A program made the translations under genes and the position numbers. The notes under the pieces are model-generated. The model did no database searches and had not been told where the DNA came from. It saw only the letters and a list, made by a program, of their open reading frames with translations. From positions 1-39,219 of the forward strand of contig JAQTVL010000002.1 in the NCBI GenBank assembly GCA_028706835.1: DNA of 39,219 nt, written 5' to 3'. Shown piece after piece: positions 2,304-39,219 of this stretch (the first letter of the stretch is position 1; each line of letters opens with the position of its first letter). Source of the DNA: Phycisphaerae bacterium. Lineage in GTDB: Bacteria > Planctomycetota > Phycisphaerae > JAJVII01.

Positions 2304-4055
2304 TCATTTCCCCACCCGCACTTTCCGCCCGCGGCGGGCCTTGCCCTTTGTGCCTTTGTGCCTGCGTGCCTTAGTGCCTGTTTTCGTGGGCCGCTTGCCG
2401 CGGGCTTTCCTGACCGCCTTGGCGATCTCGGTCCCCGTCTTGTCTTTGCTCTTTGCGCTTTCAGATTTGAGATCCTTCGCCGGGGGCTCCGGCTCGGTAT
2501 CCAGCTTGAGCCCCAGCGCCTTGACCATCGCCTGCGCCGCGGCATGGCCGTCCGCTAGATTCCCGGCTTGTGGCCCGGCGACTTCTACGCTGTCCCGCCA
2601 GAGCCGATTCAAGTTCTCGCCGAGCCCCGCCAGCGCCTGGGCGGCCGTCATTTTGTTCAGGGCGGCCCACCGCTTCGCATCGGGCAGCCAGTCCTCCGAA
2701 TCGAACGCGACCGCGAATTGCAGTGCCCGCGGCTTGATCTTCCGCAGCAGTTCCGCTCGGGCCAGCTTGGCGAGCGCGACCCGCGCCGCGGCGACGTACG
2801 CCACCTGCTTCTTTCGCGTGGCGACCTGGGCCGCGGATTCCTGGGGCACGGCGCGGCCGTACCTCGCGCCCCGCGGCACCGCGCCCTGACGTACGATCCA
2901 AATGACCTTACCGGCCGCGGCCGGATCGGCGACGATCGCCGGCTCGGCCCCCGGCGTGTCCTTCCGGCACGGACTGAACGCGGAACAGCCCAGCACGGTC
3001 TTTTTGCCGCAGACCTTGGCCACTTGTTTCCGGGCCTCGGCGCCGAGCGTGTAATGCTTCTCGCTGACGATCGCCGCCGCCGGCAGCTTTTCCGCCGCCC
3101 GCGCAACGGCGGCTTTCGCGTGCGCCGCCAGCTTGCGCGCGTAGCATTCCGGGACCCGGCACTGGCCGCCGGGGCGGGCGGGCGTCTGGAGCATCAGTGG
3201 ATCGCCCGATTCGTCGAGCCGGTGCGGACAGGTGCTGCACGCCCCCGCCTTGGGCTCCAGCGCGGCGTCGTCGAGCTTCCACGGCGCCTGCGCGAGCCGC
3301 CGCAGATACGTGCGGTTGATCTCGCTGCGGAGCTGTTTGGCCGTGCGAATCCACTTCGTGGCCAGGAGCCGCCGCTGAGCGTTTTCGGGCACGAGCGCCA
3401 GTTCTTCCAGCATGCTCGCCGGCCAGCGCTCTTCGCCCGGCATCTTTTCCCACGCCGCGATCGTCGCGGGCGCGAGTCGGGTGAGCTTGCTCCGCCGCGA
3501 CACCCACGCCGGCGACTTGCCGAGCGCCTCGGCGAGCTCGCGGACGGTCCGCCCCAGCGCCAGTTGCTGCGCCACGGCCGCGCCCTCCTCGATCGGCGTC
3601 AGGTCCTGGCGGTGGAAGTTCTCGACCAGGGCCGCCAGCTCGGCCTGTTGCTCGGTGAGTTCGCGCACAATCGCCGGAATGGTTTTCCAGCCGAGCTTGA
3701 CGGCCGCACGCCACCGCCGTTCCCCGGCCACCAGCTGATAAAACAGCAGGCAGCTCGGGTGGTTTTGCGGGCTCTTGCGGACGACGATCGGCTCGATCAG
3801 ACCCGCACGGCCCAGCCCCGCGCACAACTCGGCAAAGGCGGGGCTGCGCTCGTCGCACTTGCGGTTCAACGGGTTCCGGTCGATCACGTCCACCGGCAAG
3901 AGGCGCAGGTCCTCGACAACGGAGGGGGCGGCGCCGGGCGGCGTGGTTCCAACGGAGGGGGTTGGAGTGGGTCGGCCGGCCCGGCGCCTTACGCGGGGCT
4001 GCGTCTCGGGTTCCGCGGCGGGCGCCGCGGTTTCGGTCAGTTGGTCGATCGCCAT
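2304..4055 (-). CDS. ParB/Srx-fold N-terminal domain protein with HTH, long C-terminal extension and Lys/Arg-rich tail (583 aa from the ATG at 4055)
   Basis: LPVDVIDRNPLNRK...LIEPIVVR...YQLVAGERRWRAAVKLGWKTIPAIV matches the ParB N-terminal arginine-patch motif, followed by an HTH-like GRTVRELAEALGKSPAWVSRRSKL. The ATG at 4055 has a GAGGAA RBS. The track's upstream extension (to 4136) only translates the palindrome at 4097-4111. Confidence 0.85.
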   Translation of the reverse strand: MAIDQLTETAAPAAEPETQPRVRRRAGRPTPTPSVGTTPPGAAPSVVEDLRLLPVDVIDRNPLNRKCDERSPAFAELCAGLGRAGLIEPIVVRKSPQNHPSCLLFYQLVAGERRWRAAVKLGWKTIPAIVRELTEQQAELAALVENFHRQDLTPIEEGAAVAQQLALGRTVRELAEALGKSPAWVSRRSKLTRLAPATIAAWEKMPGEERWPASMLEELALVPENAQRRLLATKWIRTAKQLRSEINRTYLRRLAQAPWKLDDAALEPKAGACSTCPHRLDESGDPLMLQTPARPGGQCRVPECYARKLAAHAKAAVARAAEKLPAAAIVSEKHYTLGAEARKQVAKVCGKKTVLGCSAFSPCRKDTPGAEPAIVADPAAAGKVIWIVRQGAVPRGARYGRAVPQESAAQVATRKKQVAYVAAARVALAKLARAELLRKIKPRALQFAVAFDSEDWLPDAKRWAALNKMTAAQALAGLGENLNRLWRDSVEVAGPQAGNLADGHAAAQAMVKALGLKLDTEPEPPAKDLKSESAKSKDKTGTEIAKAVRKARGKRPTKTGTKARRHKGTKGKARRGRKVRVGK

Positions 4056-4096
4056 GGGTTCCTCGCAGTGACGTGGCCGCGGCGGCGGCTGCGCCG

Positions 4097-4111
4097 TTTC
4101 ACTCTGAAACA
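4097..4111. promoter_or_regulatory. parS-like palindrome copy 1: GTTTCA-CTC-TGAAAC
   Basis: Read directly. About 40 nt upstream of the ParB-like ATG. Same arms as canonical parS (GTTTCA-CG-TGAAAC) but with a 3-nt centre. Confidence 0.45.
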
Positions 4112-4526
4112 GCGCAGCGCCCGCCGAATTCTGCAATTTGTACTTGCCCCCGGCGCGGTCGAATGGCTAGCTTCGGAGAGGGGGGTAGCGTGGTTTAGGC
4201 ACGAGGCCGCCGTCCGCCCTCTTATCAGACCTATGGATATGCGGGTCCGAAAAGAGATATTATGTGGTGTTCGGGCGGTCCGGAAAGAACGCCCCCGGCG
4301 CTCGGTACGGTCGCCCGTCCGGCCCCCGCGGGGCCGACGCGGCCGTGAACCCGATAATCTCGCACGCTCCTGCACGTCCGTTGCTCCGGTCCGTTACAGC
4401 GCGAGAGGCGTCCAGCGCGGGACTCGGTCAAGAGGCTTGCGCGGCTGGGACGCCCCGGGGAAGTCCCCGGCGCCGGGGGCTAATTCAGTTCAAGCACGTT
4501 TGACGTTGACCGAGCCATGGGCGCGT

Positions 4527-17507: not shown

Positions 17508-18839
17508 CTACGCCGACGGGTTGATCGTGTTCTTGCTCTGGGCGCCCGGATTCATCGCCAGGAGCTGACACGACGTGTACCAGTACGACTCGTACGCATT
17601 GGCGTGCTCGCCGTTGGGGCCGAGCGCCCCGCTGCGCACGATCGTCTGATCGTCGCCGTTCATGGGCCCGAGCTCGCGCTCGACGCCCAGGCAGAGCGCC
17701 TCGCTGTCGAGCATGTAGCCCGTCCAGGGGGCGATCGCCAGGTCGATGATCAGCGGCACTTCCTGGCCGTTGGGGGCCAGCCAGTGCAGGGCCGGGTAGC
17801 CGAACACGCTCTTCTTGACCGCGCTCGGCCACTGCTGATAGCCGTAGTGGATGCGGCCGAAGTTCGTGTAGTAATTCGCGTCGCACAGGATCACGTTCGG
17901 CTCGGCGTTGCAGCGTTGCTTGGCCGCGAGCCAGATCGCGAAGAGGTTGTCCACCGTCCAGGTGGACTTGGCCTGGGCCAGGTACGAGCCGCCGGCCGTC
18001 TTGGCGTTGGTGCCCGTGCGGGTGATGCCGGCGTAGGCGCCGGTGCCGACGAGCAGGTCGAGGCCCTTGATCGCGTTGCCGTACTCGGACGCGAGCGGCG
18101 TGCCGAGCGGGTCGTGAATGCCGCCGCCGACGCCGCACCCGCGGAACACGCGCGTCGACGTCGTGACGGTCGGCGTCGTGCCGACGGTGAATTGCGTGGC
18201 GCTGACGATCGTGGCGATGGTCGCGGCGACCGGGCTGGTGCCCGTCGCGGTCGCGAGCACGATCGGCTGGCCCTCTTCGAGGTGCCGCGTGCTGTCCACG
18301 GTGATCGTCGAGCCCGAGCTGCCGGCGGTCACGATGGCCAGGATGCCCGTGCCGTCGCCGTACAGGTCGCGGTTGATCTGGTTGCGCACGTCGAGCGGCA
18401 GGCCCTGCATCTCGCCGTCGATGACTTCCAGCGCCGCGGCCTTGGCGCCCTTGGACGTGTCGAGCAAGGCCCCATCAATTTTGAAGCCGCCCCAGTAGTA
18501 CGTGGGGCGGATTTGGGCGCGGATGCGGGTCTGGCTGCCGGGCAGCGGCAACCAGCCGGTGGTCTGCCCGCTGGTCGCATTGCGGGCCCCGACGCCGAAG
18601 TTGCGCCCGACGTGGATGTTCCACTCCAAACACAGCCCGTATGAGCCGTTGGCCCCGGGGACCATGGCGGTCTTCAGGCCGCCGGTGCGCTTGGCGGCGA
18701 CGCTGCCGGGCCCGGGCGCCTTTTTCTGCAGGATGTCCAGGAACGGCGTGTCGGTGTACACCGCGTCACGCACGCCGTTCAGATAGACGTTACGCAGCGT
18801 TTCGTTCCAACTGGCGAGTGTGGCGGGTGAAGCACCCAT
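17508..18839 (-). CDS. Major capsid protein candidate (443 aa)
   Basis: Position after portal and scaffold. The ATG at 18839 has the strongest RBS in the window (GAGGAGTCGAAC). Followed by a large hairpin. The track extension to 18953 runs through a terminator. Confidence 0.65.
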   Translation of the reverse strand: MGASPATLASWNETLRNVYLNGVRDAVYTDTPFLDILQKKAPGPGSVAAKRTGGLKTAMVPGANGSYGLCLEWNIHVGRNFGVGARNATSGQTTGWLPLPGSQTRIRAQIRPTYYWGGFKIDGALLDTSKGAKAAALEVIDGEMQGLPLDVRNQINRDLYGDGTGILAIVTAGSSGSTITVDSTRHLEEGQPIVLATATGTSPVAATIATIVSATQFTVGTTPTVTTSTRVFRGCGVGGGIHDPLGTPLASEYGNAIKGLDLLVGTGAYAGITRTGTNAKTAGGSYLAQAKSTWTVDNLFAIWLAAKQRCNAEPNVILCDANYYTNFGRIHYGYQQWPSAVKKSVFGYPALHWLAPNGQEVPLIIDLAIAPWTGYMLDSEALCLGVERELGPMNGDDQTIVRSGALGPNGEHANAYESYWYTSCQLLAMNPGAQSKNTINPSA

Positions 18840-18869
18840 GTTCGACTCCTCAGGTCTTTTCTGGCCCGT

Positions 18870-18914
18870 AAAAAAAGGGGCGGTGGGTCGCCTACTCAGC
18901 GAACCACCGCCCCT
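18870..18914 (-). terminator. Canonical intrinsic terminator (11-bp GC stem, extendable to about 15 bp, plus U-run) between scaffold and capsid genes
   Basis: Minus strand: AGGGGCGGTGG-loop-CCACCGCCCCT followed by TTTTTT. It ends about 30 nt upstream of the capsid ATG. Confidence 0.6.
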
Positions 18915-19059
18915 ATCCGAGCGGGTGGGATAGCACCGGCCTGCGTCGTTCATGTGGCCTCAGACCGCCACAGGCTGGCTCGGTTTTTTACGGGTTACAG
19001 AAGGTTGTTGCTCCTAAACGGGCACGGGTTTCGCCAAGATCCTCTTGGCGGGTCCAGAC

Positions 19060-19948: not shown

Positions 19949-22153
19949 TTACGCCGCGGCCGGTGCCAGCGGCATCGGCCCCCGCGGCTGACCTACATTC
20001 CCCGGCGGCGGTCCCGCCGGCGCTGGCATGCCATTACCCCCGCCGGCCAGGAAGTTCCGCAAGATCTCACCCCGCGGACCATTCAGCAGCGCGCCCATGC
20101 GCCCCGTCTGCGGGCCGGCCTGGTTTTCGAGCTGCGCCAGTTGCTTGTCCGCGGCCTGCTTGCGCTCCCATTCCAGCTTGGCCTCGCCGCCGAGCTGCCC
20201 GACGATCAGCGGCTGCACCGCCTGGATGCGGATCGTGTCTTTGTAGTAGCGCTCGAAATTGGCCTGCACTTCCGGGCTCAGGTGCTTGAAGTCCTCGCCG
20301 TTCATGAAGTGCAGCAGCTCCGCGGTGCGCACGACGTGGTTGTGATACCACGCCGGCGGCACGTAGCGGCCCGTCACCAGGATCTCATGCACCCGCCGCT
20401 GGGCCTCGCGGTCCTGCTGATCGCGGTCCAGCCGCCCGCTGCTGTCGCCCAGCTCCAGGACGGTCAGCACGAGCTGCCGATCGGCCGGGTCCTTCGGGTC
20501 GAAGAAATTGAACTGGATGAGCGTAATGATCAGATCCGTCTGGGCCGCGCGACTGCGGGCCGCCCCGGCGGTCTTCAGCGTGACGTTGAACGCTTCCGGG
20601 CCGCTGGCGGGCGTCCCGCCGGCGACGAGCTGCTTGCCGCTCAGCGCCCGCCGCTCCCACGCGTTGTCCGCCCCCCGCACGGCGATCATCCGCTCTTCGC
20701 TGACGAACTGCCGGATGCGGCACAGGATCAGCCGGAACACGTCCTGCGTCCAGCGGGCCAGGTTCTTGCGGGTCGGGTCCATGCGCGTATCGTCGGCCGA
20801 TTGCAGGAGTTGCACGAACCGGCCCGAGCGCCCGTTGGACGGGGCCTTGCCCAGCGACACGTCCTGCACGCCGATGCAGTTCTGGATCGCCCGCACCCAG
20901 CGGTCGAACATCGCATTCCAGCTCGGCGGCAGGTCCGGCCGGTCGAGGGCCTCGGGCTTCTTGTTCTTGTAGGTGAAGTACCCGCCCTTGCCGGCCACGT
21001 CGCTGGCCAGGATGCCGTTGTCTTCCGGTCCCCACATCGACGGGTTGACGTTCAGGTCCACGGCTTCCATGCCGCGGCTGACCAGGAAGTTGATCATGGC
21101 CTGCGGGTCGAACATGTCCCAGGCCGGCGTCTTGGGCCACGGGCTGTTGCGCACGCGCAGGCAGTCGCACGGGACGTACGGCACGCGCCCGTCGTCGTAG
21201 GGGTTGGCCAGCTCCGCGTTCCGCTTGCGGTTGACCACCTGGTCATTGACCAGCACGACGTGCAAGCCGGCGGGGTGCGCGGCCGAGCGCGGCGCCCACA
21301 GCTCGAACACGAGCACCGTCTCGCCGCGCCGCTGGTCGTAGACCGTGCTGCCCTGGGCGGTGAACTCGTTCCGGTACCACAGCTCGCGGGCGTCGGCGTA
21401 GGCCGGTTTCAGGTCGTCGGCTTTGAGGCCGTAGCGCGCGATGACGTAGCCGAAGCTGCGCTCGTGGCCTTCGAGCACGTACTCGGCCTTGCGGAACGGC
21501 AGGCCGACCGGCCCCCAGGTCAGGTTCCGCAGCGGCACGTTCTCGACGCACAGCTCCCCCATGCTCACGGTGCGGCCGGCCCCGCCCTGCTCCAACGGGT
21601 CGCCGTCGAGTTGCAGCGTCTCCAACTCGGCCGCGCTCAGCTCGAATTCGCTGCCGGCCAGCGGGTCCCAGGTGACTTTGCCGAAGCCCAGGCCGCCGAA
21701 CGCGATGAGCTGGCCCATGTCGTCCTTGAGCCGGCCGAGGTCCAGATAGTCCCGGTAGTAACGCAGCCAGGTGGTCTGCGCCCGGCAGGCGTCCAGGTCG
21801 GGCTCGCTGGTGCCGGTGGGTGTGGCTTCGGGCTCGACTGGGTCCAAGGTGGTCCGGGCCACGTACTGGTCGAGCAGCGGCGCGAAGTAGTTGACCATCA
21901 TCCGCACGCGATCGTCGGGGTTGGGGATCGGCTCGATGCGAAAGCTGGTGGTTCCGCCGGTGCTGGCGTGCCACAGGTACTGGTCGCCGCGGTACCAGGC
22001 CTCGGTCAGCTCGGCCAGAAGCTCCATCTGCACCTGCTGGGCCGGGCGGGATTGCCAGACATCCTTGACGAAGGCGGCGATCTCATCGTCCTTCGTCCAG
22101 TCCACCGTGTGGAAGGGCACGCCGCCGGGCAAGGTGTGCGTCGCCAGGCTCAC
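19949..22153 (-). CDS. Portal protein candidate (734 aa)
   Basis: Size and position downstream of the large terminase. GTG start in a GTGA overlap with the upstream stop. Normal amino-acid composition versus the Arg-rich antisense ORF. Confidence 0.7.
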   Translation of the reverse strand: MSLATHTLPGGVPFHTVDWTKDDEIAAFVKDVWQSRPAQQVQMELLAELTEAWYRGDQYLWHASTGGTTSFRIEPIPNPDDRVRMMVNYFAPLLDQYVARTTLDPVEPEATPTGTSEPDLDACRAQTTWLRYYRDYLDLGRLKDDMGQLIAFGGLGFGKVTWDPLAGSEFELSAAELETLQLDGDPLEQGGAGRTVSMGELCVENVPLRNLTWGPVGLPFRKAEYVLEGHERSFGYVIARYGLKADDLKPAYADARELWYRNEFTAQGSTVYDQRRGETVLVFELWAPRSAAHPAGLHVVLVNDQVVNRKRNAELANPYDDGRVPYVPCDCLRVRNSPWPKTPAWDMFDPQAMINFLVSRGMEAVDLNVNPSMWGPEDNGILASDVAGKGGYFTYKNKKPEALDRPDLPPSWNAMFDRWVRAIQNCIGVQDVSLGKAPSNGRSGRFVQLLQSADDTRMDPTRKNLARWTQDVFRLILCRIRQFVSEERMIAVRGADNAWERRALSGKQLVAGGTPASGPEAFNVTLKTAGAARSRAAQTDLIITLIQFNFFDPKDPADRQLVLTVLELGDSSGRLDRDQQDREAQRRVHEILVTGRYVPPAWYHNHVVRTAELLHFMNGEDFKHLSPEVQANFERYYKDTIRIQAVQPLIVGQLGGEAKLEWERKQAADKQLAQLENQAGPQTGRMGALLNGPRGEILRNFLAGGGNGMPAPAGPPPGNVGQPRGPMPLAPAAA

Positions 22154-22837: not shown

Positions 22838-24577
22838 TCACCATCGCCCACGCCCTCCGCCGCCCACGCTGGCCAGTTCGCGGTTGCGTTCCAGCGCCCG
22901 GCCGACCGCATCGACGCCGGCGTAGCCGATCTTCAGCCCGGTGCGCCGGGTGAATGCTTTATCCCGCTGGTCGCGCGTCAGCGGCGGGGCTGGGTAGCGC
23001 GCCGGGGCGCTGGCCACGATCAGGCGGTTCAGGAAATCGACCCCGTACTGCACCTCCTGGCCGCGGCTCTCGGCCGCCTCGCAGGTGTAGGGCTGCAGGC
23101 AAATGCCTGCCTTGCGGAAGCTGTTGATGCAGTCCGGTCGGCTGCGATCGCCCACGCCGCCGGTGAAGCTCCAGGCCTCGCACAGCCGGTGTACGTCGGC
23201 CGCGTTGTCGTCGATGCTGCGGCCCTGGGCCGCGAAGTCCGGGTCGTACCACTCGGCGAACACGTGCCCGTGGCCGGTGAAGTTCCAGAAGGTGGCGATG
23301 TAGCGGATCACGTCCACGCCGTGGTTGTTCTCGTCGCGCGGCCGCCCGCGCGGGCCGTAGGTCAGGTGCGTCAGCTCGTGCCAGAAGTGCGGGCAGGCGC
23401 CGATGTCCACCGTGAACTGCGTCGGGCGGTCGCGATGGTGGGCCACGCACAGGGTTACGAACGGGTCCACGCCGCCCCAGTCGAAGCCGCGGTAGAGCTG
23501 GTAGCCGTCGGCGAGCAATTCCCCGACCGGCCGGTGCAGGCCGTGCCGCTCTTTCCGCAACGCCGGGAACACGCGGCCCTCGGCCACGGAAAACGCTTCG
23601 TCGGGCGTGCTGGGAAAATCCTGCATGAACTTGATCAGGCTGCCGGAGTCGGCAATCTTCTGCCGCCGCCAACGCAATTGCGCGTTGCTCAGTTGTGGCA
23701 CGCGCTCCAGCAACTCGGCTTCCGCCGCAATTTCCTTCGGCTCGGTCAGCGCCGGCAGGGGGGCCTCGTCGCCCAGCACGGCCCGCGGCTCGTCGTACCA
23801 GGGCGCGAACACGAACGCGAAACTGCCCTCCCCTTTCATCGCCAGCCGCGCCCGCCGCTCGAACTCGCCGGAGGTGTCGGCCCCGTTGGCGGTCGATTCG
23901 ATCACGATCACCGTGAACGGCGAATCGGCCACCGAGTTACTGACCGAGAGCATCTGCTGCTGCACGCTCTCCTGGTCGCCGGCGACCTTGGCCAGCTCGG
24001 ACAGGTGCAGGAACTGGATATTGGCCGACGAGCTGATGTACTGCCCGCCAAAGGTCCGCACCTGGAGCCACGAATCGTGCTGGTCCTGAAAGTCGAGCGT
24101 GCTCGCCGCCGGCCACTTGGGCTGGCTGGTATGCTCCGGGTCGTACACGAACATGCGGGCGGTGATCTCGAAGATGTCGCGCGTGCTGCTTTCGGTATGG
24201 GCCACCACCTGGGCATAGCGGTGCGGATAATGCTTGACCAGGTAGTAGCCCAGGGCCTCCACGATGGTCGAGCAGCCGGGCTTGCGGTACTTGAGGATCA
24301 GCACGCGGACCGGCAGCCCCAGCTTGGCCTGTTCCAGCATGGCCAGGTACACGTCGGTCTGCAGCGAGTTCGGCACCAGCGTAATCAAGTGCGCGTCTTT
24401 GTCCTTGATCACGCACGGCCCGGTGATCGGCCCGACGACGCCGGCCGCCCGCATGCGGGCCTGCGCCGCGGCGCCCGGCGGCGTGTGCAGCCACAACCAG
24501 AAGCCCCGCAGAATCGGGACCATGGGGGTCGCCGTTTCGCTTGGGGCGGCGGTCAGGATGGCGGGGGCAACGCTCAC
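22838..24577 (-). CDS. terL: Terminase large subunit (579 aa)
   Basis: Walker-A-like VLILKYRKPGCSTIVEA, Walker-B-like FTVIVIESTANG, and nuclease-domain motifs FDWGGVDPFV and HGVDVIRYI. GTG start at 24577. Confidence 0.85.
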   Translation of the reverse strand: MSVAPAILTAAPSETATPMVPILRGFWLWLHTPPGAAAQARMRAAGVVGPITGPCVIKDKDAHLITLVPNSLQTDVYLAMLEQAKLGLPVRVLILKYRKPGCSTIVEALGYYLVKHYPHRYAQVVAHTESSTRDIFEITARMFVYDPEHTSQPKWPAASTLDFQDQHDSWLQVRTFGGQYISSSANIQFLHLSELAKVAGDQESVQQQMLSVSNSVADSPFTVIVIESTANGADTSGEFERRARLAMKGEGSFAFVFAPWYDEPRAVLGDEAPLPALTEPKEIAAEAELLERVPQLSNAQLRWRRQKIADSGSLIKFMQDFPSTPDEAFSVAEGRVFPALRKERHGLHRPVGELLADGYQLYRGFDWGGVDPFVTLCVAHHRDRPTQFTVDIGACPHFWHELTHLTYGPRGRPRDENNHGVDVIRYIATFWNFTGHGHVFAEWYDPDFAAQGRSIDDNAADVHRLCEAWSFTGGVGDRSRPDCINSFRKAGICLQPYTCEAAESRGQEVQYGVDFLNRLIVASAPARYPAPPLTRDQRDKAFTRRTGLKIGYAGVDAVGRALERNRELASVGGGGRGRW

Positions 24578-26841: not shown

Positions 26842-28218
26842 TTAGCGCTTGGGCGTGACGACGCGCGCCCCGGTATAGGGCGTACCGTCGATCGTCGCCG
26901 CCCAGTCGATGAACAGCGTCACGCCGGCGGGGATCTGCTCGCCGCTGTCGGTGATCTCCAGCGCCCATAAGCCGCTGCCAGCGCCCGTCTCGGCCAGCGC
27001 TTCGGTCGTCAGCAGCGCGACGCCGGCGGAGGTGGTCACGGTGATCGTGGGTGCGACCACGCCGGTCTTTTTCCAGGCCGCCGTGAGCGCGTTGTGGAAC
27101 ACGACGGCGTAATGGTCGTACGCCGAGGTGTGCAAGGCGACCACGTCGATCAGGTAGTTCAGCATGTCGGCGTGGAACGACGCCGGGGCGATCCCGGCCG
27201 TAGCGGGGTTGGCGGCCAAGGTCGTGCCCAAGGCGGCCAGGGCGGAAGCGGCATCGGCGGCGGCGGCCGTGGCCTGGGTGGCGGCCGTACCGGCATCGGT
27301 AACGATCGTATCGACCTTGCCGTCTGTGACCGCGAGCGCGGCGGCCGTCGCCGCGAGGTCCACTTTGCCGTCGGTAACGGCGAGCGCCGCGGCCGTCGCC
27401 GCGAGGTCCACTTTGCCGTCGGTGACGGCGAGCGCGGCGGCCGTCGCCGCGAGGTCCACTTTGCCGTCGGTGACGGCGAGCGCCGCGGCCGTCGCGGCGA
27501 GGTCGACCTTGCCGTCCGTGACGGCGAGCGCCGCGGCGGTGGCCGCGAGGTCGACTTTCCCTTCGACAGTGGTCAGGGCCGCGGCGGTGGCGGCGGCAGC
27601 CAAGAGCGCAGCATCCGCCGTAGCCAACTGGGTGGCCGCCCCTTCCACGCTGAACGACGCCAGCGCCGCGCTGTGCGGATTGCCGCCGATGGTCAGGATC
27701 AGACCGATCAGGGCATACTGTCCGCCGGAGACATAGAAGGCGTCGCGGGGGGCGCCCTTGGGCGTGAGGTCGATGTAGCCTGCCGCGACTTCCGCATCCG
27801 GCATGCCGCTGGTGGCCTTGACGTTCGGATCGCACAACGCCACGGACCCGCCCGTCGTGTACGGGGTGAACCCGGACGAGTCGATGGCCACCGTGATCGT
27901 GTCGCCGGTCACGTTGGTGATTTCGCCCCACAGCCCGTTGATTTCGACCATGCCTTGGACGTTGGCGAAGAGGATGAAATCGCCGATGGCGAAAGCACTG
28001 GGCGCGCCGACCTGCACGACGGCGGCCCCCGCCTTGCTGATCGCCAGGATGCTCTCGGTGGCGGCGGGGTACAGGCGGACCACCGCCAGCTTGTCCTGCC
28101 AACTGGCCGGCAGATCCTCACTGCCGGCCGCCCCGCGCGCCGCCAGGCCAAACGGCAACCGCGTGCTGGGGGGAAAACTGCCTAAAAACGGTCCGGCGTA
28201 CAGTGCGGTTTCGCCCAT
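26842..28218 (-). CDS. Repeat-containing fibre/decoration-like structural protein (458 aa)
   Basis: The ATG has an AAGGAG RBS. The N-terminal FANVQGMVEINGLWGEITNVTGDTITVAIDSSGFTPYTTGGS resembles the small beta-barrel (E1 FCCH-like) module common in phage fibre/decoration proteins (from memory). Central (GKVDLAATAAALAVTD)x5. Confidence 0.65.
   Translation of the reverse strand: MGETALYAGPFLGSFPPSTRLPFGLAARGAAGSEDLPASWQDKLAVVRLYPAATESILAISKAGAAVVQVGAPSAFAIGDFILFANVQGMVEINGLWGEITNVTGDTITVAIDSSGFTPYTTGGSVALCDPNVKATSGMPDAEVAAGYIDLTPKGAPRDAFYVSGGQYALIGLILTIGGNPHSAALASFSVEGAATQLATADAALLAAAATAAALTTVEGKVDLAATAAALAVTDGKVDLAATAAALAVTDGKVDLAATAAALAVTDGKVDLAATAAALAVTDGKVDLAATAAALAVTDGKVDTIVTDAGTAATQATAAAADAASALAALGTTLAANPATAGIAPASFHADMLNYLIDVVALHTSAYDHYAVVFHNALTAAWKKTGVVAPTITVTTSAGVALLTTEALAETGAGSGLWALEITDSGEQIPAGVTLFIDWAATIDGTPYTGARVVTPKR
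27310..27597 (-). repeat. 48-bp tandem repeat, 5 near-identical units plus 1 degenerate unit, in frame (16-aa repeat)
   Basis: Units start at 27310, 27358, 27406, 27454 and 27502 (GTCCACTTTGCCGTCGGTGACGGCGAGCGCCGCGGCCGTCGCCGCGAG type). The degenerate unit is 27550-27597. Confidence 0.85.
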
Positions 28219-28267: not shown

Positions 28268-28340
28268 TAGCCGGGGCGGGACTCGAACCCGCAACCTCGT
28301 GGTTATGAGCCACGCGAGCTGCCAATTGCTCTACCCAGCA
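28268..28340 (-). tRNA. tRNA with CAU anticodon (Met); initiator-like identity elements; CCA not encoded
   Basis: Manual cloverleaf: UGCUGGG UA GAGC AAUUGGCA GCUC G CGUGG CUCAUAA CCACG AGGUU GCGGG UUCGAGU CCCGC CCCGGCU A. All four arms pair except 1:72 (U/U). G18 G19 and the T-loop UUCGAGU are present. Confidence 0.8.
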
Positions 28341-28364: not shown

Positions 28365-28399
28365 GGTCCCGGCGGGGCTGGCTCTCCAGGGCCGGGACC
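28365..28399 (-). other. 9-bp stem hairpin (GGTCCCGGC/GCCGGGACC) between the DHH gene stop and the tRNA
   Basis: Inverted repeat read directly. Possible terminator or processing structure. No U-tract. Confidence 0.3.
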
Positions 28400-28415: not shown

Positions 28416-29591
28416 TCACCGCCATTTGCTTTTTTTCGCGCCGCCGCGCGCGGCCTCTTTGGGGGTCGCGCCTTCGGCCGGGGCGGCGGTCCGTGCCGCC
28501 CCGGCGTCCGGCGCCGTCGTCACTGGGAGCTCGACGGCGACATCCGGGGCGGCCGGAGCCGCCCCGGCGTCGCACTCTTTTGGCGCATCGCCAAGTGAAT
28601 TTTGAACCGGGACCGCATCCGGCGCGACAGTCAGCGCCGGCGCGGCCCCGGGGGCGGTCAGTTCTTCGGGTTTCTTATCCAGGGGACAGATGATTTCATT
28701 CAGGAATAGCAGGCCATGCGTCAACCCGTACCGGAAGCTGGCCGCCGTCGCATGGCCCCCGCCACCGTGCCGCTTCGCGAGCGCCCCCACGTCGAATTCG
28801 TTGCGCCGGCTGCGTAGCTCAAAGGTCACTTCGTCCGCGTGAATCACCGCGACCACGGCGAATTCCGCCCCCGGATTCTGGTCGAGCATCCGGTGCGCCA
28901 GATCGGAGGCCTGAAAATGGCTCGCGCAGGCCACGATCACGTCATACGCCTCGGGGTCGGCGTCCGGCGTTCCGCACAGGCCATCCGACGCCGGTGTTTC
29001 AGTCTGAAACACGCCGGCCCAGGCCTGGAGCGCCAGGAGTCCGATCTGCCGCTGGTACGCCCGCCAGATCGCCCGGCCTTCGCTGCGCAGGCTCTCCAGG
29101 CTGCCCAGCAGGTGCTCGGCGGTGTCGAGCGCGAAGTCGTAGCTGGCCAGGGCCGCGTTGATCTCATGGCTGTCGGGCAGCTCGAATTTCCACAGGTCGC
29201 GGTCCTCGACGTAGGCCAGCAGCTCGGGCAGCGGCTCGGCCGGCCGCAGAAAAGACCACGCCAGCACGCAGGCCGCGTGCGTGGGGTCGTAGACCACCTG
29301 CACGTTCTCCGGCCGCGGCCCGGCGTAGTCGAGCGCGCAGCTCGCGTGGTGGTCGATGACCAGCACGGCCGCGGCCTCGGCGCCGAGCCGGGTCACTTCG
29401 GCGAACGACTGCCCCAGGTCGAGCACCACAACGGCCTGCCCTTTGGAAATCGGCGGCAAGGGCACGCCGGCCCGCCAGGGGGTGTAGTCGGCGTCCCGGC
29501 GATAGCCGCGGTAGGCCGCGTACGCGGCCCACTGCCCGTCGGGGTCGTCGTGATAAAACACCTGCGTGACTTTGGCGTCGGCGACGTTCAT
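28416..29591 (-). CDS. DHH/DHHA1-family phosphoesterase (391 aa) with an Ala/Pro-rich C-terminal tail
   Basis: Motifs in order: VFYHDDPDG (DxD), VVLDLG, VLVIDHH (DHH), YVEDRDLWKF, and the DHHA1 signature KRHGGGGHATAASF. ATG at 29591 in an ATGA overlap with the upstream gene. Confidence 0.8.
   Translation of the reverse strand: MNVADAKVTQVFYHDDPDGQWAAYAAYRGYRRDADYTPWRAGVPLPPISKGQAVVVLDLGQSFAEVTRLGAEAAAVLVIDHHASCALDYAGPRPENVQVVYDPTHAACVLAWSFLRPAEPLPELLAYVEDRDLWKFELPDSHEINAALASYDFALDTAEHLLGSLESLRSEGRAIWRAYQRQIGLLALQAWAGVFQTETPASDGLCGTPDADPEAYDVIVACASHFQASDLAHRMLDQNPGAEFAVVAVIHADEVTFELRSRRNEFDVGALAKRHGGGGHATAASFRYGLTHGLLFLNEIICPLDKKPEELTAPGAAPALTVAPDAVPVQNSLGDAPKECDAGAAPAAPDVAVELPVTTAPDAGAARTAAPAEGATPKEAARGGAKKSKWR
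28994..29012. promoter_or_regulatory. parS-like palindrome copy 3: GTGTTTCA-GTC-TGAAACAC (8-bp arms), inside the DHH gene
   Basis: Read directly. Falls in the linker between the DHH and DHHA1 halves (translated AGVFQTETP). Confidence 0.4.
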
Positions 29592-33612: not shown

Positions 33613-34314
33613 ATGGACTTTCACCTCGACGTGAGCAAGTTCCTGACCGAGCAGGAGGTCGCCGCTGTGCTGCGCGACGGCGACCGGCGGGCCAAACGCT
33701 CGCCGCTCACCGCCCAGCAGCTCATCATCTTTCGCCTGGCCACGGGCGCCGGCCTGCGTGCCAGCACGATCGCCGGCCTGCGCCTGATCGACCTGCACCT
33801 GGACAGCGACCCACCGCTGATCCGCATCCCCAACGGCATCGCCAAACGCCGCCGCAATGGCCCCGGCAAACGCCGCAAGCCCACGCTGGTGCCGCTGGCC
33901 TGGTCGGAGTCCACCCTGCTGGCTCTGCGGGCCTGGAAGGCCCAGCGGCTCGCCGGCGGGGCCACGCCGGCCGACCTGGTGGTCTGCTCCAGCTCCGGCC
34001 GCCCGCTCGACCGCCGCCACGTCCGCGACAAGTTCCGCGCCCTGCTGCGCGGAACACGAGACGCGGACGGCGCGCCGGTCTTTCCCGCGGAGCGCCTCCA
34101 GGGGCTGACGACGCACACCGGCCGCCACACGTTCGCTTCGCTCGCGCTGAAGGCCGGACACACACTAGCGGAAGTCAGTCAGGCCCTCGGTCACAGCTCG
34201 ACGGCGGTGACGGCGGTGTATCTCCACGCGGACCCCGAAGGCTTCGCGCGCCGCGGCGAGCTGCTCGGCGCCGCGCTCCAAACCGAACCAAAACCGACCC
34301 CGAGCGGAGCCTGA
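33613..34314 (+). CDS. int: Tyrosine recombinase/integrase, short form (233 aa, catalytic domain only)
   Basis: Catalytic signature in order: TGAGLRASTIAGLR (Arg I), HTGRHTFAS (H-x-x-R), LGHSSTAVTAVYLH (His/Tyr nucleophile). ATG preceded by GGAGGTCGCGCC. Confidence 0.85.
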   Translation: MDFHLDVSKFLTEQEVAAVLRDGDRRAKRSPLTAQQLIIFRLATGAGLRASTIAGLRLIDLHLDSDPPLIRIPNGIAKRRRNGPGKRRKPTLVPLAWSESTLLALRAWKAQRLAGGATPADLVVCSSSGRPLDRRHVRDKFRALLRGTRDADGAPVFPAERLQGLTTHTGRHTFASLALKAGHTLAEVSQALGHSSTAVTAVYLHADPEGFARRGELLGAALQTEPKPTPSGA

Positions 34315-37473: not shown

Positions 37474-37703
37474 GGCGCACCTGCCATTTCATTTTGAAAC
37501 GCCGGCCGCACACGGGCCAGCTTGCAGCGCAGCTCCCACGCTGTGATGCGCGCCCCCAGGGCCTTGCGCCGCCGGCCGTAGGCTTCCGCTTTCTCCAAAT
37601 CCAGGCGCGAGGCCGCCACGGCCGCACACACCGGGAACAGTTCTTCCTGCTGCGCGAGCAGCGCCCGCGCCTCGGTGAGCAGCTCTTCGCATTCAGCGTC
37701 CAT
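37461..37703 (-). CDS. Small helical protein (80 aa)
   Basis: The ATG at 37703 is preceded by GGAGGAACCCCCCG: MDAECEELLTEARALLAQQEELF... It overlaps the stop of the NTPase gene. Confidence 0.45.
   Translation of the reverse strand: MDAECEELLTEARALLAQQEELFPVCAAVAASRLDLEKAEAYGRRRKALGARITAWELRCKLARVRPAFQNEMAGAPCKP
37486..37500. promoter_or_regulatory. parS-like palindrome copy 5 (degenerate): ATTTCA-TTT-TGAAAC
   Basis: Read directly, 12 nt upstream of the ASCH start, inside the last codons of the preceding small ORF. Confidence 0.3.
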
Positions 37704-39219
37704 CGGGGGGTTCCTCCGGCGCGAGATACGGCAGCACGCCGCCGCCGCCATGCGTCTGCTCGTCATCCTGCACCTGCCGTTCGGTGCCGATCAGTTCGTG
37801 CACCACGGCCCGCGGCACGCCCAGCATCGAAGCCGGAATACTGTCCACGTTAAAGCTCATGCGCACGCGCGTCCGCAGGCCTTTCTGACTGGGCGTGTGA
37901 TACAGCCAGCCGTTGTCGTTCCAGATGCGGATGACGCGCTTGGGGTCGATATGCGCCCGGCCCAGTACCTCGTTGATCGTCGCGTCCGCGAAAAAGATGG
38001 GCGTTTTCTGGCCCACGTCGTAGCGCCCCCGCCAGCCTTGACCGGGCGGTTTGTCATTTTTGGCCCCCACCGTCAGGTCGAAATAGGCGTCCCGGTGCGT
38101 GGCCGCGTCCTGCAGCAGGAGCTGCATCGCGATGCGGGCCGTGTCGCTGGCGGTAATCCCCTGCTGCACCGCCGGGCCGAGCACCTCCCACAAGTCGAGC
38201 ACGTCCCACGGCAAACCCAGCGCCGGGTGGGCGAGGTCCGCCGTGATCTGCAGGATGGCCAGGTTACGGGCCATGCGCCCCGCCAGGTGCTCGCCGGCCC
38301 CGCCGGCCTGCCGAAACGCCTCGGCAAACCCGGCCTGCGACGCTACGAGGGCGGCCTGCCACTGCGGCAATTGCTCCCAGTGCGCCAGGAGCCAGGCCAC
38401 GAACCGCGGCACCGCGTGCCCGTAGTTTTGCTCGACGGCCGCGGCCACGTGCTGCACGAGTTGCCCGGTCGCGGCGCTGGTCTCGCCCCAGGGCTTGCCC
38501 CACATATTGATCACGCGCAGCTTGGACCCCTCGGCGTCGTCGGCGAACTCGGTCATCGGCTGCTCGCCGGTGGACAGCAGCGTCGAGTCCCAGTAGCCCG
38601 GACGCTCCATCCCGGGCGACCCGTCGGCTTTCTTGCGGGCCCGCTCTTTGCCCTTGGTGTACTCGTAAATCACGTTCTGCAGCATGGCCTGGTCGCGGAC
38701 TTCCTTGGTGTCGTCCACGAACAGCGGCACGTTCCGCAGGGTGGCCGCGCGGGCAATGAGCGCATTGATCGTCGCCGACCAGCTCTCCAGGGCCTTGTCC
38801 CGGGCCGTGTCGTCGGGGTTCCCGGCCGTCGAGGCCGCGACCTTGAGCGCGATCGTCTTGCCGGTCGACGTCCGCGCCGCCCACTCGATGATCAGCGACG
38901 GCACGTGCAACGGCTGCATCAGGACCGCGGCCAAAGCGGCATAGATCCCGACGCACACCAGCGGGAACCGTTCCAGCCCCGCCAGCGCCGCCAGCCAGCC
39001 CTCGTACGTCCCGCCCACGCCATACGCCGCCGCCAGGCTCTCATCCCCGGGCGACGCCGGGCGAAAGAGCAATTCGTCCGCCCGCCAGCTCTGCGGGTCG
39101 CTGCCGCCGGCCTCACGCAGGCCCTGCCGGTCGATCACCTGTTTGCCGATCAGAAATCGCGGCCCGGGCTGCCAGCCCATCGCGCGGGTGAATTCCGCCC
39201 GCGGCAGGACGCCCGCATT
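37693..39219 (-). CDS. P-loop NTPase of the phage/plasmid primase-helicase type (DUF927/P4-alpha-like); frame still open at the window edge
   Basis: Walker A EWAARTSTGKTIALKVAAS, Walker B NVPLFVDDTKE, and the preceding GTYEGWLAALAGLERFPLVCVGIYAALAAVL block typical of this family (from memory). The frame stays open upstream of the ATG at 39180 (..NAGVLPRAEFTRA-MGWQ..). Confidence 0.7.
   Translation of the reverse strand, partial: NAGVLPRAEFTRAMGWQPGPRFLIGKQVIDRQGLREAGGSDPQSWRADELLFRPASPGDESLAAAYGVGGTYEGWLAALAGLERFPLVCVGIYAALAAVLMQPLHVPSLIIEWAARTSTGKTIALKVAASTAGNPDDTARDKALESWSATINALIARAATLRNVPLFVDDTKEVRDQAMLQNVIYEYTKGKERARKKADGSPGMERPGYWDSTLLSTGEQPMTEFADDAEGSKLRVINMWGKPWGETSAATGQLVQHVAAAVEQNYGHAVPRFVAWLLAHWEQLPQWQAALVASQAGFAEAFRQAGGAGEHLAGRMARNLAILQITADLAHPALGLPWDVLDLWEVLGPAVQQGITASDTARIAMQLLLQDAATHRDAYFDLTVGAKNDKPPGQGWRGRYDVGQKTPIFFADATINEVLGRAHIDPKRVIRIWNDNGWLYHTPSQKGLRTRVRMSFNVDSIPASMLGVPRAVVHELIGTERQVQDDEQTHGGGGVLPYLAPEEPPDGR

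Follow-up and report, generated by a model that had tools for sequence, protein, structure and literature searches.

A phage-carried tRNA(CAU) gene of the bacterial initiator type on a contig of a Phycisphaerae MAG

The phage contig and its tRNA gene

The window analysed here, a stretch of 39,219 bp, is a whole contig (C290) of a MAG that has 715 contigs and is 87% complete. Judging from its PHROG and Pfam matches, the contig is that of a phage, and the features on which the following analysis draws are:

2304-4136: ParB-like protein (PHROG/Pfam match)
17508-18953: major head protein (PHROG/Pfam match)
19949-22153: P22-like portal (PHROG/Pfam match)
22838-24577: large terminase (PHROG/Pfam match, weak)
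26842-28218, minus strand: 458-aa gene, downstream of the tRNA and co-directional with it (Pfam E1_FCCH, 33 bits only)
28268-28340, minus strand: tRNA(CAU), 73 nt, assigned to the initiator (tRNA-fMet) type (ARAGORN, Rfam RF00005)
28365-28399, minus strand: hairpin within the 75 nt that separate the 5' end of the tRNA from the stop codon of the DHH gene
28416-29591, minus strand: DHH/DHHA1 phosphoesterase, upstream of the tRNA and co-directional with it (PHROG 4771, E 7e-53)
33613-34314: tyrosine integrase (PHROG/Pfam match)
37693-39180: primase/helicase (PHROG/Pfam match)

The window contains one real tRNA. ARAGORN, run over the whole window, called a single tRNA(cat) at 28268-28340 on the minus strand, with the anticodon cat at position 34, where the earlier note had folded a tRNA(CAU) by hand, and the Rfam model RF00005 matched identical coordinates with 61.7 bits against a gathering score of 29. 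The acceptor stem consists of U1xU72, G2:C71, C3:G70, U4.G69, G5:C68, G6:C67 and G7:C66, followed by the discriminator A73; 1:72 was the sole non-standard pair flagged by Infernal in the RF00005 match. The D stem (GAGC/GCUC) provides A11:U24 and G12:C23, the anticodon stem is formed by C27:G43, G28:C42, U29:A41, G30:C40 and G31:C39, and the anticodon loop, CUCAUAA, has the standard 7 nt and is the same as that of Escherichia coli metZ. CCA is not encoded, ATC coming after A73. Direct reading thus agrees with everything that the manual fold had reported: the unpaired U1/U72 (also borne out by Infernal), G2:C71, C3:G70, A73, A11:U24 in the D stem, only two of three G:C pairs in the anticodon stem, and the missing CCA.

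The tRNA is part of a run of co-directional genes, 75 nt past the DHH stop codon, and the ATG of the 458-aa gene follows 49 nt beyond the tRNA 3' end, with an AAGGAG ribosome-binding site 7 nt before it. The flanking genes had been described as a DHH phosphoesterase and a structural gene; the former assignment stood, and the latter is at most putative, as the 458-aa gene had no match in PHROG. Its 33-bit Pfam match is to the ubiquitin-E1 FCCH domain and covers residues 74-126. The hairpin that had been noted upstream of the tRNA does exist, with a 9-bp G+C-rich stem (GGUCCCGGC/GCCGGGACC) present in both the MFE and centroid folds, but is statistically unremarkable, the region folding no better than shuffles (z = -0.89). 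A role as a terminator was not supported, since the consensus scan made no terminator call, the z-score is unremarkable and no U tract comes after it; at most a weak terminator is conceivable, or else a signal for processing. Promoter prediction near the tRNA found none, which makes co-transcription followed by processing the likeliest route of expression.

Although an integrase is encoded on the contig, it lies 5.3 kb away and phage genes stand on both sides of the tRNA, which argues that the tRNA is not at the attachment site. An attP or att remnant was rejected on the same grounds, and because the tRNA is complete. The association with the DHH gene does not appear to be conserved either, since relatives of the latter (~30% identity) in 39 viral contigs, all of them distant, had no CAT tRNA next to the gene in any case. 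A look-up of contigs that encode the DHH protein itself gave one short contig. Close relatives of the 458-aa protein and of the large terminase were absent from the viral and genome contig collections, and among 400 host-class genomes the terminase had only distant matches, in 4; a close relative of the phage was therefore not found in the collections searched. Within the MAG, the only other match to the window tRNA was a tRNA on a second phage contig.

Assignment to the initiator type

Three types of tRNA with a CAT anticodon had to be told apart, namely initiator, elongator Met and Ile2, and as labels we used three experimentally defined E. coli K-12 genes, taken by coordinate: metZ for the initiator, metT for the elongator Met and ileY for Ile2. 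A blastn search of the window tRNA against E. coli genomes gave no match at that database size. Sorted against the K-12 labels, the MAG's own CAT tRNAs were an initiator (on C25), an elongator Met (C207) and an Ile2 (C417). Each type was then collected from 45 evenly drawn genomes of the MAG's class and aligned with its E. coli label, and covariance models for initiator (R1), Met (R2) and Ile2 (R3) were built on one shared cloverleaf. The scores, in bits, were:

Window tRNA: R1 78.9, R2 70.7, R3 65.1
C25, initiator (control): R1 102.6, R2 72.3, R3 64.7
C207, elongator Met (control): R1 68.7, R2 99.6, R3 79.6
C417, Ile2 (control): R1 57.2, R2 75.6, R3 95.7

Each of the three tRNAs of the MAG was assigned correctly by 20-30 bits. 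The window tRNA also scored best with the initiator model, with Met second and Ile2 lowest, in line with the identity proposed in the earlier note, but its margin of R1 over R2 was only 8 bits. Such modest margins arise because the covariance models are heavily entropy-weighted: unweighted column profiles made from the same alignments gave the window tRNA 69.7 bits as an initiator, 21.1 as Met and 5.1 as Ile2. Moreover, seven columns distinguish initiators from either type of elongator in the host class (A11, G12, C23, U24, G31, C39 and C67), and the window tRNA has the initiator state at every one of them. A11:U24 and G12:C23 were absent from all 27 Met and 28 Ile2 tRNAs of the class sample, and C11:G24 occurred in all 55 of these elongators (E. 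coli included), which agrees with the earlier statement that elongators normally have Y11:R24. Both pairs have been described as complete fMet discriminators among 1070 CAT tRNAs (Silva et al. 2006; PMC1635315), whereas C3:G70 is typical of both Met and fMet, and C4:G69/C5:G68 of Ile(CAT) (PMC1635315).

Two elements depart from the initiator pattern. U29:A41 interrupts the three consecutive G:C pairs of the anticodon stem, though G30:C40 and G31:C39 are kept, and also breaks the R29/Y41 consensus of cellular initiators; the three pairs are a hallmark that is nevertheless absent from 15% of accepted fMet genes (PMC1635315). The second departure is in the acceptor stem, where a U4.G69 wobble stands in place of G4:C69; the window tRNA otherwise keeps the formylation elements. 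The absence of a strong 1:72 pair is the primary formylation determinant, as well as an anti-determinant for EF-Tu and for peptidyl-tRNA hydrolase, and G4:C69 is a minor formylation determinant in E. coli. Taken together, the published discriminators, the three covariance models and the comparison with the host class support the assignment of the window tRNA, as judged from its sequence, to a phage-encoded tRNA(CAU) of the bacterial initiator type.

Comparison with cellular and phage-borne initiators

When the window tRNA was searched against 400 genomes of the MAG's class, full-length matches of 84-85% identity were obtained in many families. These have the form UGCGGGG...CCCCGCU-A, that is, U1xU72 and A73, with three G:C pairs and without CCA. 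In complete genomes, the MAG's own initiator likewise matched this UxU-type locus best, which identifies the locus as the cell's initiator. Among 28 full-length chromosomal initiators from the 45-genome sample, 1:72 was CxU in 17, UxU in 8 and CxC in 3; A73 and the pairs G29:C41, G30:C40 and G31:C39 were present in 28/28, and CCA was encoded in 4/28. With 8 of 28 initiators being UxU and so few encoding CCA, both the U/U mismatch and the missing CCA of the window tRNA are, by this comparison, normal for the host class. The comparison with host initiators that the earlier note had suggested thus showed U1xU72 to be an ordinary state of the class rather than a phage peculiarity. More generally, chromosomal initiators of this class carry a pyrimidine-pyrimidine 1:72 (CxU, UxU or CxC) instead of the textbook C1xA72, so that U/U at this position should not be taken for an aberration.

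Identity of the window tRNA is 85% with the UxU-type initiator of the class but only 74% with that of its own MAG; given the closer match to other families, either the binning or the true host is uncertain. It differs from the UxU-type initiator at 11 positions, 9 of them in stems, none of which breaks a pair, and four pairs are changed on both strands. The changed pairs (UxU-type host initiator first, window tRNA second) are:

4:69: G:C, U.G
27:43: U.G, C:G
28:42: C:G, G:C
29:41: G:C, U:A
51:63: A:U, G:C

Three of the five belong to the upper anticodon stem (27:43, 28:42 and 29:41), all compensated; on the 5' strand of that stem, E. coli metZ and all 20 distinct chromosomal initiators sampled from 28 genomes of the class have U27, C28 and G29. 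That pairing was kept through nine stem differences suggests that the fold has remained under selection and speaks against a pseudogene in decay. The alignments thus place the acceptor and D arms with the host-class initiator, and the real departure in the upper anticodon stem.

E. coli metZ/W/V/Y and the chromosomal initiators of the class share with the window tRNA the anticodon CAU, the loop CUCAUAA, A11:U24, G12:C23, G2:C71, C3:G70, A73, an unpaired 1:72, G30:C40 and G31:C39, with 72% overall identity to metZ. The window tRNA is unlike these cellular initiators in having U29:A41 for G29:C41, U4.G69 for G4:C69, and C27:G43 and G28:C42 for U27.G43(A43) and C28:G42, and in being carried by a phage. 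Initiators of the au/GC/GC form, which is natural in alpha-proteobacteria and occurs in chloroplasts and some mycoplasmas, likewise lack G29:C41 and keep G30:C40 and G31:C39, and are functional (PMC5389676, PMC1635315); however, the described variants retain a purine at 29 and a pyrimidine at 41 (A:U), whereas the window tRNA has U:A. Of the three pairs, E. coli requires only the middle one, G30:C40, and a cg/GC/cg stem still sustains growth, with fitness costs (Shetty et al.; PMC5389676).

Initiator tRNAs carried by phages have precedents. Stenotrophomonas phage vB_Sm_QDWS359 has an annotated tRNA-fMet(CAU) that is 83% identical to the window tRNA over 70 nt, although its 1:72 is C1xA72 and none of the three G:C pairs is missing there, and the gene content of the two phages is unrelated, only the tRNA matching. 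Sinorhizobium phiLM21-like prophages carry at most one tRNA each, usually Met(CAU) or fMet(CAU) (PMC12429752). As in the window, the annotated phage and prophage tRNA-fMet(CAU) genes are found in phages of 40-60 kb with very few tRNA genes and ordinary phage genes around. Phage and prophage tRNA-fMet genes are thus already annotated and published, and the window tRNA adds one more, with an isotype call secure enough for annotation.

A broader view was obtained from pattern scans of viral and genome collections, in which the invariance of the D and anticodon arms was imposed by the pattern and the acceptor stem was left unconstrained. Among the matches listed from IMG/VR, 72 distinct phage-borne initiator-like tRNAs had A:U (32), G:C (27) or U:A (13) at 29:41, so that 45/72 phage copies are without G29:C41, as against the invariant cellular initiators of the host class; A73 was present in 65/72, and G2:C71 together with C3:G70 in 59/72. 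We also aligned 82 distinct phage-borne copies, again among the matches listed, to the initiator model: 1:72 was unpaired in 68/82, each of the other six acceptor pairs was paired in at least 81/82, with many double (compensatory) changes, and 4:69 was G:C in 68/82, while 27:43, 28:42 and 29:41 varied widely. Two further phage contigs of the same MAG, C251 and C365, also carry initiator-like tRNAs without G29:C41. On the former, whose tRNA has A29:U41, there are genes for an integrase, ParB, a portal and a capsid-protease; the latter is a phage fragment that codes for a major head protein (PHROG 9953).

Only 5 of the 401 host-class genomes (the MAG included) had the U29:A41 form, each of them belonging to a different family. 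One of the 401, G282, is unpublished, and nothing specific is concluded from it. Where the neighbours of three other such loci were scanned, one had prophage-type genes (excisionase-like and RusA-like) and one an endolysin-like peptidase, and the sporadic distribution fits carriage on mobile elements. Among the matches listed from species-representative genomes, U29:A41 was found mainly in Saccharibacteria and other Patescibacteria, and from these sequences it appears to be the native initiator form in many members of these groups. The Candidatus Saccharibacteria/Patescibacteria copies (L326-L405) have a 1:72 mismatch and, in 74/75 among the matches listed, A73. Their U29:A41 falls outside the published R29/Y41 consensus for cellular initiators (PMC1635315).

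Probable function and alternative readings

We consider it probable, at roughly three chances in four, that in the window tRNA a temperate phage carries a functional tRNA of the initiator type (tRNA-fMet). The tRNA would be expressed from a long leftward operon, probably co-transcribed with the DHH gene and the next gene, and excised by host RNase P and 3' processing enzymes, with CCA supplied by the CCA-adding enzyme of the host. Known identity rules suggest that the CAU anticodon and A73 would make it a substrate of host MetRS, and that U1xU72, G2:C71, C3:G70 and A11:U24 would make it a substrate of the host formyltransferase and a poor ligand of EF-Tu; the MAG does encode fmt (250 bits against a cut-off of 201.5). 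From work on E. coli mutants, G30:C40 and G31:C39 should permit binding in the P site. Charging, formylation and P-site use are thus all likely for a tRNA of this sequence, and the net effect would be to enlarge the supply of initiator tRNA while phage genes are expressed, in part independently of the host genes. Such an extra supply is the simplest function; replacement of a host tRNA that is targeted during infection is possible.

One further suggestion, that the tRNA could bias initiation towards phage mRNAs starting with GTG or TTG, found no support. The SD-guided starts of the phage were 15 ATG, 8 GTG and 0 TTG, compared with 59%, 28% and 13% on contigs of the MAG, and a link to non-AUG starts was rejected as these are not enriched in the phage. 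A CAU initiator reads ATG, GTG and TTG starts in any case.

How the upper anticodon stem came to be rewritten can be explained in two ways under the reading as a functional initiator, either by neutral drift under relaxed constraint or by evasion of host factors for which the anticodon stem-loop of the cellular initiator is a recognition element. The second, a sub-case of the preferred explanation, holds that the stem is adaptive and allows the tRNA to escape host toxins or defence nucleases such as VapC-type PIN nucleases and GNAT acetyltransferases, and we regard it as possible but unlikely. It would account for the change of all three pairs at positions whose 5' strand is invariant in chromosomal initiators, for the wide variation of the same pairs over the phage-borne copies listed, and for the rarity of U29:A41 in the class, where some loci have prophage-type neighbours; at least 15 ORFs of the MAG also exceed the Pfam cut-off as PIN-domain (VapC-like) proteins, and defence evasion has been proposed in print for anticodon loops (PMC10264068). 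Yet the anticodon loop, the VapC cleavage site, is identical to that of the host, no toxin specificity is known for this host, and relaxed constraint on a supplementary copy explains the pattern equally well. Moreover, the phage samples derive from numerous hosts, and in some of these A:U or U:A is the native pair at 29:41. In its general form, the idea is that phage initiator tRNAs are systematically rewritten at 27:43, 28:42 and 29:41, with formylation and P-site elements kept, and that this is adaptive, either by evading toxins and nucleases or by passing the IF3 checkpoint differently; we advance it as a speculation with the odds against it. If the divergence were adaptive, the concept of tRNA-based defence evasion would extend from anticodon loops to the anticodon stem of the initiator.

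Less probable still is that the gene is a non-functional passenger, either a captured host gene in decay or the remnant of an attachment site. The window tRNA is 15% diverged from any cellular initiator found, neither a CCA nor a promoter was seen, and we found no orthologue in a related phage that would show conservation. However, the tRNA is full length with all four stems intact, 9/9 stem differences preserve pairing, the invariant tertiary and loop nucleotides are kept (with the 61.7 bits in Rfam), and CCA is also lacking in 24/28 chromosomal initiator genes of the class. It is flanked by phage genes and separated from the integrase by 5.3 kb, which places it away from attP.

An elongator tRNA-Met that supplements the decoding of internal AUG codons is more doubtful again. 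The anticodon CAU, the 70.7 bits that the tRNA still reaches with the Met covariance model and the absence of G29:C41 would be compatible with it, and the single tRNA found most often in some temperate phages is tRNA-Met(CAU) (PMC12429752). Elongator Met tRNAs of the host class, however, have a standard 1:72 pair (G:C, G.U or A:U) with C11:G24, where the window tRNA has U1xU72 and A11:U24 instead of a Watson-Crick 1:72 and Y11:R24, and a 1:72 mismatch is an anti-determinant for EF-Tu (PMC4611024). A11:U24 and G12:C23 are foreign to the elongators sampled, the profile scores stand at 21 against 70 bits in favour of an initiator, and the window tRNA does not resemble the elongator Met of the class in its anticodon stem and loop (AGGGA UUCAUAA GCCCU in the latter). 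A tRNA-Ile2 that reads AUA after conversion of C34 to lysidine is very improbable: although the anticodon is CAT, Ile2-type tRNAs are frequent in phages and ARAGORN is unable to separate the types, both the covariance (65.1 bits) and the profile score (5.1 bits) were the lowest of the three, and C3:G70, U4.G69 and G5:C68 are present in place of C4:G69/C5:G68, together with A11:U24 (not Y11:R24) and the 1:72 mismatch.

Several of the initiator-like tRNAs found alongside the window tRNA, which we read as a probably functional phage-borne initiator, have unusual features of their own. Among the matches listed, 13/72 phage-borne copies (within L117-L196) have a weak Watson-Crick pair, U1:A72, rather than a mismatch, and several of these have T or C as the discriminator. 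The copy on C365 (6910-6983, minus strand; L032) has A1xA72, U29:A41 and the loop UUCAUAU, and scored 89.4 bits with R1. C33, in a CCCAUAA loop, replaces the near-universal U33 in three initiator-like tRNAs from phage, prophage-like or unclassified DNA:

C251:12529-12601, minus strand: C33 tRNA
L089 (G373:C8): C33 tRNA
L446:1491-1567, Janthinobacterium phage Donnerlittchen: C33 tRNA

C251 also carries a second tRNA-like gene, 190 nt upstream of its initiator-like tRNA (C251:12794-12868, minus strand; L031:9796-9869), with C1xA72, A73, A11:U24 and three G:C pairs, but with A8 for U8 and a 9-nt anticodon loop (CCACAUCCC). It scored 60.9 bits with the initiator, 40.1 with the Met and 39.7 with the Ile2 model, and may be an unusual decoder or a degenerate copy. 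A weak tRNA-like match on the same contig (L031:14291-14355, minus strand) reached ~25 bits with each of the three CAT models.
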